From the NCBI GenBank assembly GCA_046262555.1, contig JBHENR010000028.1:1-32298 (forward strand): 32,298 nucleotides of DNA, read 5' to 3'. The stretch is from Gemmatimonadota bacterium. Its GTDB lineage: Bacteria; Gemmatimonadota; Gemmatimonadetes; JACCXV01; JAHWKZ01. The notes under the pieces were generated by a model. It was not told the DNA's origin and ran no database searches. It saw only the letters and a list, made by a program, of their open reading frames with translations. The position numbers and the translations under genes were made by a program. Below, piece after piece: positions 1 through 6,696 of this stretch (position 1 is the stretch's first letter; each line of letters opens with the position of its first letter).

Positions 1-1638
1 GTCCGGGGGCTGCTGCAGCAGTCCCGCGAACTGCTTCACCCACAGCTCGCTGACATTGAGCGCGACGGCGAAGGGGAGCAGCGCGCTGAAGAGCTCGGGG
101 GTTTTCTCCGGCGCGTCGCGAAACTCGATCTCGGCCTTCTCGGCGCGGCGGATGTACTCCCGCAACCCCTCCAGGTCGCGCCGTACGCGCGCGCCGCCGG
201 CGGTCATCGCCGGCATGTGGAAGGAGAAGACGATCACCAGGAGGGCGCAGAGGATGAGCGCCGGGAGCAAGGTCCAGATGCCGGCCGCCGCCAGGGCGGG
301 GATGCCCGCGACGAGGGCGAAGACGAGCATCACGATGCCGCCGGCGAGCCACAGGTTGCGCGTCCTGGCCGGGCTGCGGGCGAAGTATTGCTGCTTCACC
401 AGCTCCTTATAGAGCGCCTTCTTGATGTCCGGCAGCTTGGTATAGAATTTATTGCGCAAGGCCGACAGCCGGCGTGCCGGCTCACCATCGAGAATGCCGT
501 CGAGCACGAGTCGTTCGTAGCGTTCGAGCTCGGCGGTGTCGTCCCGGCGGCGGACGATCTCCCAGTCGGGCTTGCGGAGCCCGAGCGACGTGAGCGCCCG
601 GCCGGCGAAGGACGCTTCGTCGATGCCCCCCAGCACCCCCTCTGGCGGCACCTCGCGCAGGGACAGCCAGCCGCGCACCGCGAGATCGAGCACCGTGGCG
701 ATCACGTCGTCCATGTCGGCACGCTGGTCGGCGAGCGCGCCCGCCGTCCCCGGCCGCAGACCCTCCGGCGTGCGCCACTGGGGCGCAATGCTGCCCAGCT
801 CGGGCTCGCGGCCATGCCGCCGCCACCAGCCGAAAAGGAGCGCGAGGATGAGGAGCGGCAGCGCCAGCGGGCCGTACAGCAGGACCTTATCCACCAGGCG
901 GCTCGCGCGGGTGGGCCCCGCGATCACGCCCTTGGGGAATCCGGCCGCGAGCGTGAGCCCCTCGCCGGGCCCGAGCGGCGCCGTGGTGGCGAACGCGAAC
1001 GCGCCGGGCGCGACGACGGTGGCGGTACATCCCGTGTCGCTGGTGCTCTCCGCCGACCCCGCGTAGCAGTGCGCCTGCCAGGGGGCGCTGTCGGCGAAGG
1101 CGCGCGCCGGGGCCGGCAGCTGAACGCGCGCGCTGGCGCGTTCGATCGGCACCGGCCACTGCGTTCCCGTCACCTGCCAGTACAGCTCGTCGAACGTGTC
1201 GAAGAAGCCGAGCCCGCCCGAGAGGGTGTAGTAGAGCACGTAGACCTGGTCGCCGGTAACGAGGACGTCCGGATCGCCGATCCGGATGCGCACCGTGCCG
1301 GAGCCGCTCACCTCGGTGAGAATGTCGCGGCCGGCGCCGTCGGTCACCCGATCGAGGTCGAGATCGAACCGCACCCGGCCGGCTGGAATCGGAACGGTGG
1401 GGGAGATGACCCGCCGATACCGAACCGGAATGTCGCGATAGATGCCGTGCCGCTGGAGCGCCGCGAAGTCCACCGTGATCCATTCGATGACGGCGAGCGA
1501 GCCGTCGGGCTGGACGTCGTAGCTCGCCTGGAAGTCCGTGATCGTCCAGCCGGTATCGGTCTCCTGCGCCAGGGCGGCGGCGGGAGCAACGGCGAGCAGC
1601 CCGACCGCCAGCGCGATCGCCGTCAGGAGCCGGCTCAG
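1..1638 (-). CDS. DUF2207-family membrane protein. The N-terminal ~545 codons are in the window and the C-terminus runs off the left edge.
   Basis: Absent from the ORF track because its stop lies outside the window. My translation of the minus-strand frame is open from 1638 to 1. It reads LSRLLTAIALAVGLLAVAPAAALAQETDTGWTITDFQASYDVQPDGSLAVIEWITVDF ... RLVDKVLLYGPLALPLLILALLFGWWRRHGREPELGSIAP ... PALAAAGIWTLLPALILCALLVIVFSFHMPAMTAGGARVR. That gives a signal peptide, an ectodomain and TM helices. It lies directly downstream of lemA, which is the usual lemA/DUF2207 pairing. The start is unresolved: there is no ATG/GTG/TTG before the signal peptide, and a CTG at 1638-1636 overlaps the lemA stop. 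Confidence 0.8.
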   Translation of the reverse strand, partial: MSRLLTAIALAVGLLAVAPAAALAQETDTGWTITDFQASYDVQPDGSLAVIEWITVDFAALQRHGIYRDIPVRYRRVISPTVPIPAGRVRFDLDLDRVTDGAGRDILTEVSGSGTVRIRIGDPDVLVTGDQVYVLYYTLSGGLGFFDTFDELYWQVTGTQWPVPIERASARVQLPAPARAFADSAPWQAHCYAGSAESTSDTGCTATVVAPGAFAFATTAPLGPGEGLTLAAGFPKGVIAGPTRASRLVDKVLLYGPLALPLLILALLFGWWRRHGREPELGSIAPQWRTPEGLRPGTAGALADQRADMDDVIATVLDLAVRGWLSLREVPPEGVLGGIDEASFAGRALTSLGLRKPDWEIVRRRDDTAELERYERLVLDGILDGEPARRLSALRNKFYTKLPDIKKALYKELVKQQYFARSPARTRNLWLAGGIVMLVFALVAGIPALAAAGIWTLLPALILCALLVIVFSFHMPAMTAGGARVRRDLEGLREYIRRAEKAEIEFRDAPEKTPELFSALLPFAVALNVSELWVKQFAGLLQQPPD

Positions 1639-2210
1639 CGGGCGTCCTCGGCGCCCACATCGGGCGCGCGCCGCTCGCCGGCCTCGGCGAGCTCGAACGG
1701 CTCGCCGGGATGAAATCCGAACGGGGCCGCCAGCAGCAGGTTGGGAAACGTCTCCCGGCGGGTGTTGAAATCGCGCACCACGGCGTTGTAGTACCGCCGG
1801 GCGCTGGCGATGTCGTCCTCGGTGCGGATCAGCTCGGCTTGGAGCGCCAGGAAGTTCGTGTTGGCGCGGAGCGCGGGATACGCCTCGGCCAGCACCAGCA
1901 GCTGGCCCAGCCCGAGCGAGAGCTCGCCCTCGGCGGCCGCCCGCGCCGCCGCCGCTTCGGGCGTCGCACCAGCGGTGCGCGCGTCCGCGCGGGCCGCGGT
2001 CACCCGCTCGAGCGTCGTCTGCTCGTGGCCGGCGTAGCCCCGCACCGCGGCGACCAGATTCGGCACCAGATCGGCGCGCCGCTTGAGCATCGCGTCCACG
2101 TCGCCCCACGCCGCCCGCAGCCGGTTGCGCAACCCGATCAGGCCGTTGAAGACCCACGCCGCCCAGAGGACAAGGAGGGCGAATGCACTTGCTATAAAGT
2201 AAACCAACAA
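1635..2210 (-). CDS. lemA: LemA family protein
   Basis: 191 aa ORF with an N-terminal TM helix (LVYFIASAFALLVLWAAWVF). The typical LemA core follows: NGLIGLRNRLRAAWGDVDAMLKRRADLVPNLV...YPALRANTNFLALQAEL...ARRYYNAVVRDFN. It starts at TTG, with AAGGAG 7 nt upstream on the minus strand (2222-2227). Confidence 0.9.
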   Translation of the reverse strand: MLVYFIASAFALLVLWAAWVFNGLIGLRNRLRAAWGDVDAMLKRRADLVPNLVAAVRGYAGHEQTTLERVTAARADARTAGATPEAAAARAAAEGELSLGLGQLLVLAEAYPALRANTNFLALQAELIRTEDDIASARRYYNAVVRDFNTRRETFPNLLLAAPFGFHPGEPFELAEAGERRAPDVGAEDAR

Positions 2211-2233
2211 GGGGAGGCTCCTTATCGTAGATG

Positions 2234-2282
2234 GTAAGAGACAGCTTACATATTGATTGACAAACTGTAAGTTATCACTTAC
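2234..2282. promoter_or_regulatory. Two copies of the palindrome GTAAG-N6-CTTAC (2234-2249 and 2267-2282), probable operators for the downstream HTH protein
   Basis: Read directly from the sequence. GTAAG occurs at 2234, 2267 and 2300, exactly 33 nt apart. CTTAC occurs at 2245 and 2278. The second palindrome lies in the spacer and -10 region of the promoter below. Confidence 0.45.
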
Positions 2283-2285
2283 AAT
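2257..2285 (+). promoter_or_regulatory. Sigma70-type promoter TTGACA-17 nt-TACAAT for the HTH/Fic pair
   Basis: TTGACA at 2257-2262, a 17 nt spacer, and TACAAT at 2280-2285, in a visibly AT-rich intergenic stretch. AAGGAGG at 2315-2321 sits 5 nt before the ATG at 2327. Confidence 0.55.
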
Positions 2286-2326
2286 AATAGCACTTAATCG
2301 TAAGCCATTCCTTTAAGGAGGACTCC

Positions 2327-2791
2327 ATGGGCGCTATGAAAGACCTCCAATTGCGTCAAATCGACACCAAACTACGGTCGCTGGCAAAACTGCGCACCCT
2401 TCCTGTTCCGCCCAAGGGATGGATCCATGACATCCGGGGAGCGTTGGGGATGTCCCTGTCGCAACTCGGGGGACGTCTGAAGATGTCACACTCGGCAATT
2501 TCCCAACTCGAGCGTGGGGAAGTGGAAGGTTCCATCACCCTCAAGACACTGCAGAAGGTTGCCGCGGGCCTGCACTGCGAACTCGTCTATGCTCTGCTGC
2601 CCGTCACCTCCCTCGGCGAATACCGTGAACAGGAGGCGCGGCGTGTCGCCACCGAGACGATTGACCGCGTGGGTCACACAATGGTGCTGGAAAACCAGGC
2701 CGTTTCCGCGGCGGAACGCAGCCTGCAAATCGAGGATCTCACGCAGGAATTGCTTAGAGAACGCCCGCGTGAGATCTGGAACGCCTCCTGA
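2327..2791 (+). CDS. XRE-family helix-turn-helix protein, 'mobile mystery protein A'-like (putative antitoxin/regulator)
   Basis: 154 aa. HTH core: GWIHDIRGALGMSLSQLGGRLKMSHSAISQLERGEVEGSITLKTLQKVAAGLHCELVYALLP. Its stop TGA (2789-2791) shares one base with the ATG of the Fic gene. GC is visibly lower than in the flanks. Confidence 0.8.
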   Translation: MGAMKDLQLRQIDTKLRSLAKLRTLPVPPKGWIHDIRGALGMSLSQLGGRLKMSHSAISQLERGEVEGSITLKTLQKVAAGLHCELVYALLPVTSLGEYREQEARRVATETIDRVGHTMVLENQAVSAAERSLQIEDLTQELLRERPREIWNAS

Positions 2792-3369
2792 TGGACGGGG
2801 AACCTGAAGGGGCCACCCCCCTCGACCCGGAAGAGGCCGTGGGACTACTTCCAGCGCACATCACTACGCGGGCCGAGCTCAATGCCTGGGAGCAGGCCAA
2901 TCTCCTCCACGCGGAGCCGTGGGCGTTCGGGCGCCGGCATCCCGAGATCCTCTCACTGGCGTTCATGAAGCGTCTGCATCGGAAGATGTTCGGAGTGACC
3001 TGGAAATGGGCGGGAGCTTTTCGACAGACCGACAGGACCATCGGTGTGTTGTGGCAAGATGTTCAGGTCGCGGTGCTGACGCTGTGCCGGGACGTGAACT
3101 TCTGGATCGAGCATCACACGTACGACGCCGACGAGCTGGCGGCGCGGTTTCATCAACGCCTCACGCAAATTCACCCCTTTCCCAATGGTAACGGCCGGCA
3201 CGCGCGGTGGATGACCGATCTGTTGCGACTCGAGACCGGACACCCCCGGTGTTCCTGGGGACGGCAGGACCTCACCAGTCCGAGTGATGTCCGGTCGCGC
3301 TACATCGCCGCCCTGCGGGCCGCGGATGACGGCGACTTGACCCCGCTTCTGGAGTTTCTGCGAACGTAG
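2791..3369 (+). CDS. Fic/DOC family protein, 'mobile mystery protein B'-like (putative toxin/AMPylase)
   Basis: 192 aa with the Fic active-site loop HPFPNGNGRHAR (nt 3172-3207). It is translationally coupled to the upstream HTH gene. Confidence 0.9.
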   Translation: MDGEPEGATPLDPEEAVGLLPAHITTRAELNAWEQANLLHAEPWAFGRRHPEILSLAFMKRLHRKMFGVTWKWAGAFRQTDRTIGVLWQDVQVAVLTLCRDVNFWIEHHTYDADELAARFHQRLTQIHPFPNGNGRHARWMTDLLRLETGHPRCSWGRQDLTSPSDVRSRYIAALRAADDGDLTPLLEFLRT

Positions 3370-3397
3370 CCGCGGGCGACATTCCCGTCCGGCCCTG

Positions 3398-3417
3398 GAT
3401 TTTCGGGAGATTTTCGG
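3398..3417 (+). repeat. Tandem direct repeat GATTTTCGG (3398-3406 and 3409-3417) with an 11 nt period, upstream of the polymerase gene
   Basis: Read directly from GGATTTTCGGGAGATTTTCGGTATTCT. The -10-like TATTCT (3418-3423) follows immediately. Function unknown. Confidence 0.5.
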
Positions 3418-3474
3418 TATTCTCATGGTCCCTCCCGGCCCCGCCGGCGAGCCAGACCCTCTCGAAAGTCGCCC

Positions 3475-6400
3475 ATGGCCCAGCCGTTCACGCACCTCCA
3501 CGTCCACAGCCACTACTCGCTGCTGGCGGGAGCGTGGGCGCCGGAGGAGATCGCGCGGGCGGCGGCGCGGCAGGGCCTCCCAGCGATCGCGCTCACCGAC
3601 ACCGACGGCCTCTACGGCGCGGTGCCGTTCGCCAAGGCGTGCGCGGCGGCCGGCGTGCGGATGATCCTGGGCGCCGAGCTGACCGATCCGGCGCGCGCCG
3701 GCCGGGGGGTCTTCCTGGCGCGCGACCAGGCCGGCTACGAGGCGCTCTGCGCGCTGGTCTCGGCGCGCCACCTGGACGCCGGCTTCACGCTGCGCGACGC
3801 GGTGGCGCGGCGCTCGCCGCACCTGGCGCTCCTGACCCGCGACCACCGGCTGCTGGAGGTGGCGGTCGCGGCCGGCCGGCGCGACGGCACCTATGCCGAG
3901 GTTCGCCCGGCGCCGGATGGGCCGGCTGGCGCCGCCGAGCGCGCGCTCCGGCGGGAGACGCTGGCTTGGGCGGCGCGGCTCGACCTGCCGCCGGTCGCCA
4001 CCGCGGGCGCCTACTACGAGGCCCCCCCGCGGCGCGACGCCCATCGGGTGCTGCGCGCGATCGGCACCCGCACCACGCTGGCGGCGCTGGCGGCGCGGGA
4101 AGCGGACCGGGCGGGCAGCGGCAGCGGCGCGGGAGGCGCCGGCTGGCGCCCCGGCGACCTCGAGACCGGCCCGGTCGCGCCCACCACCGCCTGGCTCCAG
4201 CCGGGTGCCGCGCTCGCGGCGGCGTTCGCCGACTGTCCGGCGGCGATCGAGAACGCCGGCGCGGTGGCCGCCGCCTGCCGCTTCGGGTTCCGCTGGGGCG
4301 CGTTCCACTTTCCCACCTATCCGACGGCGCCGGGGGAGAGCGCGTTCGCGATGCTGTGGCGGCTCGCGTTCGAGGGGCTGGCGGTCCGCTACCGGCCGCT
4401 CCCCGACGCGGCGATCCGGCGGCTCCAGGAGGAGCTGGAGGTGATCGAGGCGAAGGGGTTCGCCGACTACTTCCTCGTCATCCGCGACATCGCCCGCTGG
4501 GCGGCGGCGGAGCGCATCCCCTCGGTCGGCCGTGGCTCGGCGGCCAACAGCCTGGTGTCGTTCTGCCTCGGCATCACCCACGTGGATCCGCTCCGCCACC
4601 GCCTCTTCTTCGAGCGGTTCCTGAGTCGCGAGCGGGCCGACGCGCCGGACTTCGACCTCGACTTCTGCTGGCGGCGGCGCGAGCGGGTGGTGGCGTACGT
4701 GTCGGAACGGTTCGGCGCCGAGCACGTGGCGATGATCGCGACGTTCTGCCGCCTCGGCGCCCGCGGCGCCCTGCGCGAGGTGGCCCGCGCGCTGGGCGTG
4801 CCCGACCGCGAGATCGGGCGCGTCACCCGGCGGCTGCCGCATGGCGCGAGCGTGGCGATGCTGCCGGCCCTCTGCCAGACGCTGCCCGAGTGTCGCGGGC
4901 TGGGGCTCGACCGGCCGCCCTGGGACGCGGTGGTGGCGCTGGCGCTACAAATAGACATGTATCCGCGGCACCCCGCGGTCCACTCCGGCGGGATCGTGAT
5001 CGGCCCCCGGCCGCTCGACCGGTACCTGCCGCGCCAGCGGGCGGCCTCGGGAGTCGTCGTCACCCAGTTCGACATGTACCCGGTGGAGGACGTGGGGCTG
5101 GTCAAGATCGACCTGCTGGGGAATCGCGGCCTGTCGGTGATCGCCGACGTGAGCGACGCGCTGCGGGAAACGGAAGGGCTCGAGATCGCCTGGGCTCACG
5201 ACGAGGATGCCCCCGAAGAACCCGGCCACGTCAACCCGTTCCGCGACCCCGCCACCCGCGCCATCCTGCGCGCCGGCCGGACGATGGGGTGCTTCTACAT
5301 CGAGTCGCCGTCGATGCGGGGGCTGCTCCGCAAGCTCCGCTGCGACAGCTTCGAGATGCTGACCGCCGCCTCGTCGATCATCCGGCCGGGCATCTCCGAC
5401 AGCGGGATGATGGACGCCTTCATACGCCGCTTCCGCGGTGACGAGCCGGTCGTCCACCTCCACCCCGTGATGGCCGAGCTGCTGGGCGACACCTACGGCG
5501 TGATGATCTATCAGGAGGATGTGATCAAGGTCGTGCACCGCCTGGCCGGGATGTCGCTCGGCGAGGCGGACGGCCTGCGCCGCGCGATGTCGAAGAAGCG
5601 CGACTTCGAGGATTTCGGCGCGCACCAGGCGCGGTTTCTCGCCGGGACGCAGGCCCATGGCGTCGCGCCCGACGTCGCCGACGAGATCTGGCGCCAGATC
5701 GAGTCGTTCGCCGGCTACTCGTTCTGCAAGGCGCACTCCGCCTCCTACGCCCAGGTCTCGTTCCAGTCGGCGTGGCTGAAGGCCCACTACCCGGGTCCGT
5801 TCATGGCCGCCGTGCTCGCCAACGGCGGCGGCTTCTACCCCGCCTTTGCCTACGTCGAGGAGGCGCGGCGGCTGGGGCTGGCGATCCGGCTCCCCGACAT
5901 CAACCGCAGCGCCGCGACCTGGAGCGCGGAATCCGCCGGACCCGGCGGCGGTGCGGGCGCGATCCGGGCCGGGTTCGGCCAGATCGGCGAGCTGCCCGAG
6001 ACGACCGTGGCCCGGATCCTCGGCGAGCGCGCGCGGGGCGGCCCGTTCATCGCGCTGGGCGATTTCTGCGCCCGGGTGCCCGTCAGCGTGACCGACGCCC
6101 ACCGGCTGATCGATGCCGGCTGCTTCGACGCCTTCGATCTGACCCGGCCGCAGGCCAAATGCCGGGCCGAGCTGGCGCTGCAGGGCTGGCTGGCGCGGCC
6201 CGAGGCCGGCGCGCTGTTCGCCCCCGCGGCGTGGGCGGCGCTGGAGGCCCCGCCGCCGCCCGTGCCGGGGCTCGCCGACTACCCCGTCGCGGACCGCCGC
6301 CGGCGCGAGTGGGAGCTCCTCGGCGTGTCGGTGCATCACCATCCGCTCGAGTTCGCCCGCGAGGCCGTCGCCGCGGTCCGCCGCGCGGCGTCCCCGCAGG

Positions 6401-6696
6401 CCCCGGCGATCACGGCCGACGCGTTCGCCGGCTACGCCGGGCGGCGGGTCACGCTGGTAGGGTTCCTGACGTCGACCAAGCGGGTTCGCACCACGCACGG
6501 CGAGCCGATGATGTTCCTGACGCTCGAGGACGAGACCGATCTGTACGACGCGGTGCTGTTTCCCCGCGTCTATCAGCGGGCCGGGCACCAGTTGCGCGAC
6601 CGGGGGCCGTACATCCTCGTGGGCCGGATCGAGGACGACCCGCACCCCTCCACGGTGATGGTGGAGCGGCTGGAGCGGCTGGCGGATCGCGCCTGA
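3475..6696 (+). CDS. dnaE2: DNA polymerase III alpha subunit family, DnaE2/ImuC-like by architecture
   Basis: 1073 aa. N-terminal PHP domain (FTHLHVHSHYSLLAGA...ALTDTDGLYGAVPF), a palm region (PDFDLDFCWRRRERVVAYVSERFG, GIVIGPRPL, KIDLLGNRGLS), and an OB fold at the extreme C-terminus (VTLVGFLTSTKRVRTTHGEPMMFLTLEDETDLYDAVLFP). No tau-binding tail follows the OB fold, and the short length fits DnaE2 better than DnaE1. The subtype call is less certain than the family call. Confidence 0.85.
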   Translation: MAQPFTHLHVHSHYSLLAGAWAPEEIARAAARQGLPAIALTDTDGLYGAVPFAKACAAAGVRMILGAELTDPARAGRGVFLARDQAGYEALCALVSARHLDAGFTLRDAVARRSPHLALLTRDHRLLEVAVAAGRRDGTYAEVRPAPDGPAGAAERALRRETLAWAARLDLPPVATAGAYYEAPPRRDAHRVLRAIGTRTTLAALAAREADRAGSGSGAGGAGWRPGDLETGPVAPTTAWLQPGAALAAAFADCPAAIENAGAVAAACRFGFRWGAFHFPTYPTAPGESAFAMLWRLAFEGLAVRYRPLPDAAIRRLQEELEVIEAKGFADYFLVIRDIARWAAAERIPSVGRGSAANSLVSFCLGITHVDPLRHRLFFERFLSRERADAPDFDLDFCWRRRERVVAYVSERFGAEHVAMIATFCRLGARGALREVARALGVPDREIGRVTRRLPHGASVAMLPALCQTLPECRGLGLDRPPWDAVVALALQIDMYPRHPAVHSGGIVIGPRPLDRYLPRQRAASGVVVTQFDMYPVEDVGLVKIDLLGNRGLSVIADVSDALRETEGLEIAWAHDEDAPEEPGHVNPFRDPATRAILRAGRTMGCFYIESPSMRGLLRKLRCDSFEMLTAASSIIRPGISDSGMMDAFIRRFRGDEPVVHLHPVMAELLGDTYGVMIYQEDVIKVVHRLAGMSLGEADGLRRAMSKKRDFEDFGAHQARFLAGTQAHGVAPDVADEIWRQIESFAGYSFCKAHSASYAQVSFQSAWLKAHYPGPFMAAVLANGGGFYPAFAYVEEARRLGLAIRLPDINRSAATWSAESAGPGGGAGAIRAGFGQIGELPETTVARILGERARGGPFIALGDFCARVPVSVTDAHRLIDAGCFDAFDLTRPQAKCRAELALQGWLARPEAGALFAPAAWAALEAPPPPVPGLADYPVADRRRREWELLGVSVHHHPLEFAREAVAAVRRAASPQAPAITADAFAGYAGRRVTLVGFLTSTKRVRTTHGEPMMFLTLEDETDLYDAVLFPRVYQRAGHQLRDRGPYILVGRIEDDPHPSTVMVERLERLADRA

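Follow-up and report, generated by a model that had tools for sequence, protein, structure and literature searches.

Among the characterised class I Fic toxins, VbhT and Fic-1 modify DNA gyrase, and VbhT also modifies topoisomerase IV. In the modules to which such toxins belong (VbhT/VbhA, FicT/FicA, that is, EcFicT/YhfG, and Fic-1/AntF), the antitoxin gene comes first and the toxin gene overlaps it; the toxin is a Fic domain of ~190–200 aa that lacks an inhibitory helix of its own, and the partner protein carries an (S/T)xxLE(G/N) motif. The mechanism of these modules has been described (PMC5033356; PMC13327609): in the (S/T)xxxE(G/N) inhibitory motif, the Glu residue pairs with the Fic motif's last Arg and prevents ATP from binding productively (PMC5033356), and the complex of Fic-1 with AntF has been reported to be a de-modifying enzyme (PMC13327609). 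Here we analyse a two-gene locus found in a stretch of 32,298 nt from a Gemmatimonadota metagenome-assembled genome (MAG; contig JBHENR010000028.1, assembly GCA_046262555.1), hereafter called the window. Its open reading frame (ORF) A encodes an XRE-type helix-turn-helix (HTH) protein, mobile mystery protein A, and its ORF B a Fic-domain enzyme, mobile mystery protein B.

Two further kinds of described systems resemble the locus in part. The hipBA and higBA promoters are overlapped by multiple palindromic operators, and the A/B pair resembles HipBA and HigBA both in the predicted HTH fold of A, which is closest to HipB and HigA, and in a promoter overlapped by several palindromic operator-like sites; the putative toxin partner here is, however, a Fic enzyme and not a kinase or an RNase. 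The defence-associated entries PDC-S04 and SoFic have a Fic domain in common with B, but they are catalogued as single-gene systems, whereas B has an obligate HTH partner and lies outside a defence island; SoFic is, in addition, a class II protein of ~360 aa with its own inhibitory helix. Closest of all is the mobile mystery A/B family itself (TIGR02612/TIGR02613), whose gene order, overlap and gene sizes are those found here. Unlike what the family name stresses, the copy in the window is chromosomal. A 2009 study counted Xre-Fic/Doc pairs, with 22 occurrences, among candidate type II modules (PMC2701414), and one from 2013 applied the term antitoxin to a TIGR02612-like protein next to a Fic gene in a cas locus of Geobacter (PMC3936711).

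In view of the analysis presented below, we regard it as fairly probable that the two genes form a class I Fic module, a FicTA-like type II toxin-antitoxin system whose antitoxin is fused to an HTH domain. An earlier note on this DNA, written from the sequence alone, had likened the architecture of the locus to that of a type II toxin-antitoxin or abortive-infection module. The likeness to a toxin-antitoxin module gains support from two conserved features, the operator and promoter layout that is also found in relatives and a motif of the inhibitory type in A, together with the class I Fic fold predicted for B.

A and B Are Members of a Named Family

Judged by profile matches, the pair belongs to a known, named and already annotated family, and nothing in it differs at the family level; public records of identical proteins already carry the names mobile mystery protein A and B. 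ORF A (2327..2791, + strand, 154 aa) scores 159 bits against the NCBIfam profile TIGR02612 (curated cut-off 122.6; 7.4e-47), with residues 7–152 on profile positions 4–149 of 150, and ORF B (2791..3369, + strand, 192 aa) scores 244.5 bits against TIGR02613 (curated cut-off 124.4; 6.8e-73), with residues 8–191 on profile positions 1–186 of 186. Both accessions had been given in the earlier note; the hidden Markov model search, with both proteins above the curated cut-offs, proves them correct. The description of the pair as an XRE-type HTH protein plus a Fic protein is also borne out by Pfam, with matches to HTH_3 in residues 33–87 of A (nt 2423–2587; 5e-10) and to Fic (PF02661; 1.7e-11) in B. 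The nearest database relatives are 62% identical in B and 45–52% identical in A.

The two genes share one base, as had been stated: position 2791 is common to the TGA stop codon of A (2789–2791) and the ATG start codon of B (2791–2793). The resulting TGATG overlap was read from the sequence, and by this layout B is translationally coupled to A. The association of the genes extends to the family. A lies directly upstream of B in 16/16 IMG/VR loci with upstream DNA, on the Agrobacterium plasmid pTiC58, and in every Gemmatimonadota relative that has B.

Family B comprises at least 6,417 clusters at 90% identity (E ≤ 1e-10), a figure that is a lower bound because the search was word-indexed. Plasmid records with B-like genes number 254, of which 100 are from Agrobacterium, 50 from Rhizobium, 19 from Coxiella and 17 from Vibrio, and 101 of the 254 are conjugative; Agrobacterium Ti plasmids are among the carriers. 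B-like genes are also found on 17 IMG/VR viral contigs, in one case directly after a tail tape-measure-like gene. These counts agree with the recurrence on mobile DNA that the earlier note had ascribed to the family. No close match was found among 50,697 GenBank phage records, an absence that neither supports nor opposes a role in defence.

Protein B Has a Predicted Class I Fic Fold and an Asn-Variant Motif

The predicted structure of B (predicted local distance difference test score, pLDDT, 88; predicted template modelling score, pTM, 0.87) matches class I Fic toxin structures over its full length. The best structural match is VbhT, with template modelling (TM) scores of 0.72/0.74 (given by query/by target length), followed by EcFicT (0.70/0.74) and Fic-1 (0.66/0.70); Bartonella Bep Fic domains match too. 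Most of the matching structures were solved together with a small partner: VbhA, EcFicA, AntF or BiaA. By its size and modelled fold, B would be a class I Fic protein, not a member of class II or III. Only 127 residues precede the catalytic His, and no (S/T)xxxE(G/N) inhibitory motif is present in B or in 108 of its 120 homologues examined. An N-terminal ‘DP’ segment (TPLDPEE) is reminiscent of the DPY lock of class I proteins (PMC5033356). Identity with the class I toxins is only 18–25%.

The Fic active-site motif of B is H128-P-F-P-N132-G-N-G-R136-H-A-R139, encoded at 3172..3207 on the + strand (HPFPNGNGRHAR). Of the canonical HxFx(D/E)GNGRxxR, it retains the catalytic His and the GNG anion hole together with the two Arg residues, and it differs from the known class I modules in having Asn in place of Asp/Glu. 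The replacement is a family trait: Asn occupies the position in all of the 117 homologues with a recognisable motif (117/117), and distant phage-borne relatives have the same residue. In known structures, the Asp/Glu of the Fic motif coordinates Mg2+, and some class I subgroups conserve this residue only poorly (PMC5033356).

Protein A Carries a Candidate Inhibitory Motif

Three parts can be distinguished in A, an N-terminal helix, the XRE-type HTH domain and a C-terminal helical domain, in a structure predicted with a pLDDT of 89.5. The public record starts A at Met4 (nt 2336). The ATG at 2327 is the more likely start, as it lies 5 nt after a strong Shine-Dalgarno sequence, AAGGAGG (2315–2321). 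Structurally, the HTH of A is closest to those of the HipB and HigA antitoxins, in matches with weak Foldseek E-values (0.05–0.1) that align the HTH part only. With its 154 aa, N-terminal helix and XRE HTH, A departs from the known FicA antitoxins, which are helical proteins of 55–62 aa.

In the C-terminal domain, the codons of T118-M-V-L-E122-N123 (2678..2695, + strand) specify a candidate (S/T)xxxE(G/N) inhibitory motif. A match to the motif is present in 113 of 120 A homologues, nearly always as (S/T)MxLEN, and the seven others (7/7) still have Leu-Glu at the corresponding place. The cluster H-T118-M-V-L-E122-N123-Q is the only strongly conserved one of A outside the HTH domain, and more distant members keep (S/T)xxLE while the last position varies. 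In the model of A, the motif ends a long helix (residues 96–121) that comes after the HTH domain. The inhibitory motifs of the validated antitoxins VbhA and EcFicA are SQRLEG and SRRLEG, respectively; Leu-Glu is thus common to both and to A.

The existence of stand-alone versions of the C-terminal domain was considered and rejected: a search of 1.84 billion representatives gave 71 matches, and the short ones turned out to be A proteins cut short, with their first residue within the HTH domain.

The Promoter Region Contains Operator-Like Palindromes

The earlier note had credited the pair with a strong promoter of its own and palindromic operators; a near-consensus promoter and operator-like palindromes are indeed found. 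A sigma-70-type promoter made of TTGACA (2257–2262), a 17-nt spacer and TACAAT (2280–2285) lies at 2257..2285 on the + strand, with 11/12 positions matching. The match is unique within 1500–3700, where one site is found and 0.2 are expected from shuffled sequences. Two perfect palindromes, GTAAG-N6-CTTAC, accompany it: O1 (2234..2249) is upstream of the −35 hexamer, and O2 (2267..2282) extends from the promoter spacer into the −10 hexamer, of which it covers the first three bases (2280–2282). An imperfect third site, O3 (GTAAG-N6-CTTTA; 2300..2315), follows the predicted transcript start and precedes the ribosome-binding site. The starts of O1, O2 and O3 are spaced 33 nt.

The same layout, with three sites at 33-nt intervals of which the first two enclose the −35 hexamer, is found upstream of the A homologues of three related loci (L049, L084 and L082); in L049, both half-sites have changed together (ATAAG...CTTAT) and the symmetry is kept. 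This recurrence, with symmetric changes in half-sites, is good comparative evidence that the palindromes are protein-binding sites, and we infer that the protein that binds them is A itself. The locus thus has the generic layout of type II toxin-antitoxin modules: a two-gene operon, a predicted DNA-binding antitoxin, and operator-like sites that overlap the operon's own promoter.

An mRNA hairpin at 2734–2777 (−30.8 kcal/mol, z = −3.0), whose end lies 14 nt ahead of B's start codon, was considered as a feature of the family and rejected, as four homologous loci do not conserve it. Chance may account for the hairpin, or it may be a peculiarity of this copy.

The Pair Occupies a Variable Spot Beside lemA

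In the window, A and B lie between a lemA-family gene (1635..2210, − strand; Pfam PF04011, 4e-49) on the left and a gene for a DnaE-type polymerase (3475..6696, 1073 aa), co-directional with A/B, on the right. Comparison with relatives recovered by their polymerase (66–75% identity), all from other Gemmatimonadota MAGs, reveals diverse contents between the two neighbours. The spacer is empty in L002 (~267 nt), and contains a gene for a ZIP-family transporter plus a fragment of an ABC-2 permease gene (5570–5857) in L001. In L005, it holds genes for a Phd/YefM antitoxin (PF02604) and a ParE toxin (PF05016) at 2273–2965 on the − strand. The A/B pair is found in the window's orientation in L049, followed by an ABC-2 fragment, transposase remnants and low-GC genes; in L082 and L083, it is followed by an intact six-gene ABC/HlyD/OEP operon, with the polymerase gene further on; in L066 and L084–L086, its orientation is the opposite.

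In every locus that has the pair, the GC content of A/B is 0.56–0.63, compared with 0.69–0.75 in the flanks. The divergence of A and B is also out of step with that of the flanking genes: L049 and L083 are 92% identical in the polymerase, 75% in B and 66% in A, while L049 and L084 are 74% identical in both the polymerase and B. Alleles of A/B have probably been replaced or inverted at the lemA spot. Because several related MAGs carry the pair beside lemA, in either orientation, the comparison identifies the pair as a long-standing, variably kept occupant of a small variable spot, and not as a recent private insertion. The spot appears to accept different toxin-antitoxin modules, with no visible recombinase, since L005 holds Phd/ParE in place of the Fic pair. 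The accessory status that had been proposed for the pair is therefore supported: instead of being syntenic and of normal GC content in all relatives, it is present in some and absent in others, and low in GC wherever it occurs.

Some side observations concern the same region. The fragments of ABC-2 permease genes (L049, 1384–5558; L001, 5570–5857), which adjoin the pair or the polymerase gene, match the intact operon of L082/L083, and the comparison suggests that the ABC/HlyD/OEP operon was deleted in the window's lineage. L049 also has, besides its transposase-like remnants, a block with a GC content of 0.46–0.56.

Composition and Borders of the Low-GC Stretch

The region 2211–3420 had been singled out in the earlier note as less GC-rich than its flanks, and so it is: its GC content is 0.597 compared with 0.718 for the whole window, which makes it the lowest-GC stretch (z = −4.2; all non-overlapping segments of 1210 nt reach 0.636 or more). 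GC content at third codon positions is 0.68 in A and 0.76 in B, and 0.89 and 0.95 in lemA and the polymerase gene, respectively. The 116 nt that precede A (2211–2326) have a GC content of 0.40.

The borders given for the islet need slight correction. At its left edge or inside it are signals of a host gene, the lemA start codon TTG (2210–2208) and Shine-Dalgarno sequence AAGGAG (complement of 2218–2223), both read from the sequence on the − strand (2208..2223). At the right, the limit of the variable spacer is marked by a conserved host sequence upstream of the polymerase gene, CTGGATTTTCGGGAGATTTTCGGTATTCT (3395..3423, + strand), aligned in five related loci (alignment A3). With the lemA signals at the left and the conserved region from ~3395 on, the truly variable, presumably foreign DNA would span about 2227–3394 and not 2211–3420.

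No flanking direct or inverted repeats that frame the stretch were found, in agreement with the earlier note as regards direct repeats, and no tRNA genes were found in the window. The absence of an integrase or transposase reading frame, also claimed there, holds for 2211–3420 and its immediate flanks, the only part of the window to which that scan extended.

Neighbouring Genes

The conserved sequence upstream of the polymerase gene, CTTGATTTTCGGGAAAATTTCGGTAnACT, is found at 3395–3423 and lies ~50–110 nt from the gene in the window and in L001, L002, L005, L049 and L066. It contains a tandem ATTTTCGG/ATTTCGG repeat, and could be a promoter, a repressor box (e.g., of the SOS type), or both. 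The polymerase itself (3475–6696) remains under the curated cut-offs for replicative DnaE (708 vs. 1002 bits) and for error-prone DnaE2 (618 vs. 939 bits), and may belong to a divergent subgroup of Gemmatimonadota, Nitrospinota and related phyla. The segment that separates B from the polymerase gene (3370–3474) yielded no terminator-like site, so transcripts from the strong A/B promoter might read through into the co-directional polymerase gene in this genome.

Downstream of lemA, an ORF at 887–1660 (− strand, 257 aa) is without a match in Pfam. Relatives have a DUF2207 protein of ~600 aa as its counterpart, with which it aligns at only 42–48% identity, and the ORF may be truncated, frameshifted or mis-delimited in a region of high GC content.

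A polymerase gene is also found near the pair of pTiC58 (L081; NZ_KY000036.1, 82281–90856): A/B lies there beside a DUF3991-toprim gene and ~3 kb from a gene annotated as ‘error-prone DNA polymerase’. The echo of the window's neighbour is probably a coincidence. A functional link of the pair to LemA or the polymerase was considered and rejected: on plasmids and viral contigs, the pair has no lemA neighbour, and the polymerase near the pTiC58 pair is a single case.

Discussion

The mechanism that we propose starts from what is established here, namely family membership, gene layout, the promoter and palindromes together with their conservation, the conservation of the motifs, and a class I-like predicted fold. 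The steps that we infer from these data involve DNA binding, inhibition by Glu122, toxicity, chemistry and target, and would be as follows. Free B would modify an essential protein of the cell with a nucleotide monophosphate (probably AMP), causing growth arrest. The HTH of A would bind, probably as dimers, the three palindromes 33 bp apart; bound at sites interleaved with the −35 and −10 hexamers, A would shut the operon off. Carried by the C-terminal helix of A, Glu122 of the (S/T)MxLE(N) motif would reach the active site of B, pair there with the Fic motif's last Arg (Arg139) and keep ATP from binding productively, in the way VbhA acts on VbhT. The TGATG coupling would tie the synthesis of B to that of A. 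Loss or degradation of A would free B, and the triggers might be loss of the DNA segment, a block of transcription and, possibly, phage infection. By analogy with Fic-1–AntF, the A–B complex could also remove the modification. The accessory behaviour of the pair argues for a toxin-antitoxin module as well, since the spacer is empty in L002 and filled with Phd/ParE in L005, and B-like genes are found on 254 plasmids.

Several observations weigh against this interpretation. The match of a single sequence to the inhibitory motif has a 14% probability of occurring by chance, and the residue that follows Glu in the wider A family can also be Asp, Glu, Gln, Ala or Ser. Furthermore, the C-terminal domain of A has no homology to VbhA or EcFicA detectable by a profile search against PDB sequences or by hhalign. 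For these reasons, the argument from the inhibitory motif rests on its conservation across the family. As a control, a search of PDB with EcFicA did not find VbhA either; negatives of this kind are therefore uninformative, and sequence homology is not a usable criterion for Fic antitoxins. Transfer of AMP by B is not assured either, given the invariant Asn at the Mg-binding Asp/Glu position. Persistence of the pair at one chromosomal site across the clade fits a domesticated regulator equally well as an addiction module. Finally, our search of the literature for experiments on any member of the family found none, only passing mentions, in line with the earlier note's statement that the pair has no established function.

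One alternative is that the pair serves as an abortive-infection or anti-phage module, in which B would be set free once a phage destroys A or halts transcription of the host, and the infected cell would stop before the cycle of the phage is complete. B does match the PADLOC candidate PDC-S04 almost over its full length (5.6e-20) and, more weakly, SoFic (8e-7), in both cases with no curated cut-off; SoFic has been reported to be a Fic-based defence protein (PMC12249575). The location of a TIGR02612/Fic pair within a Geobacter cas locus (PMC3936711) and the inclusion of TIGR02613 in the defence cargo of Tn7-like transposons (PMC8649781) point in the same direction, as does the fact that the spacer with the pair differs between relatives. 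However, PDC-S04 is an unvalidated candidate that showed no defence activity in one native-host test (bioRxiv 10.1101/2024.12.20.629700), and the neighbours of the pair in the window and in relatives are of the housekeeping type (lemA, DUF2207, polymerase, ABC transporter), with no defence island. The pair is also found on phage-like contigs and plasmids, as selfish stabilisers are. We consider a defence module unlikely.

A second view dispenses with toxicity: B would tune a stress response through reversible modification of A or of a host protein, and A would be mainly a transcription factor adjusted by B; in a variant of this view, the A–B complex might serve chiefly to remove the modification, an activity reported for Fic-1–AntF. 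Retention of the pair at the same chromosomal site in several Gemmatimonadota lineages is consistent with such a regulatory unit, and so is the length of A, ~2–3 times that of known FicA antitoxins (154 aa vs. 55 and 62), with an additional, conserved helix at the N-terminus. The invariant Asn at the metal-binding position separates the family from toxins proven to transfer AMP, and non-toxin roles have been proposed for EcFicT-like class I proteins (PMC5033356). Against it, the patchy distribution, which includes plasmids and phage-like contigs, the low GC content of the pair in every host examined, the divergence of A and B out of step with their flanking genes, and the replacement of the pair in L005 by an unrelated toxin-antitoxin module are typical of a selfish accessory module and not of a core regulator, and a purely regulatory role seems improbable to us. 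That the pair might be a decaying remnant devoid of present function is suggested by L066, where B is split over two frames. That relative is a nanopore-style MAG in which the polymerase gene is frame-broken too, so the frameshift in B is probably a sequencing error; both ORFs of the window are intact and full-length, all family-invariant residues are kept in its A and B, and the promoter and ribosome-binding signals are good. Decay is thus very unlikely.

The FicTA-like toxin-antitoxin module that we favour is, at the level of this contig, a routine accessory module that had already been annotated, and it leaves the understanding of the contig unchanged. The family to which it belongs is common, yet it lacks a published functional study in the literature searched. 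What is added here is a variable toxin-antitoxin spot next to lemA, and a testable class I Fic mechanism with an inhibitory partner fused to an HTH domain and an Asn-variant Fic motif; together, the Leu-Glu motif of A and the Asn-variant motif of B provide a concrete hypothesis that can be tested cheaply. A tentative extension, which we hold to be unlikely, is that mobile mystery A/B pairs form a large branch of class I Fic modules in which an autoregulatory HTH is fused to the inhibitory helix, and the Asn-variant enzyme has a different chemistry or target; examples would be another nucleotide or metal requirement, or an A–B complex that is mainly de-modifying. If such a branch exists, solving one of its members would name the function of a pair that has been called a ‘mystery’ for two decades on Ti, rhizobial and Coxiella plasmids.

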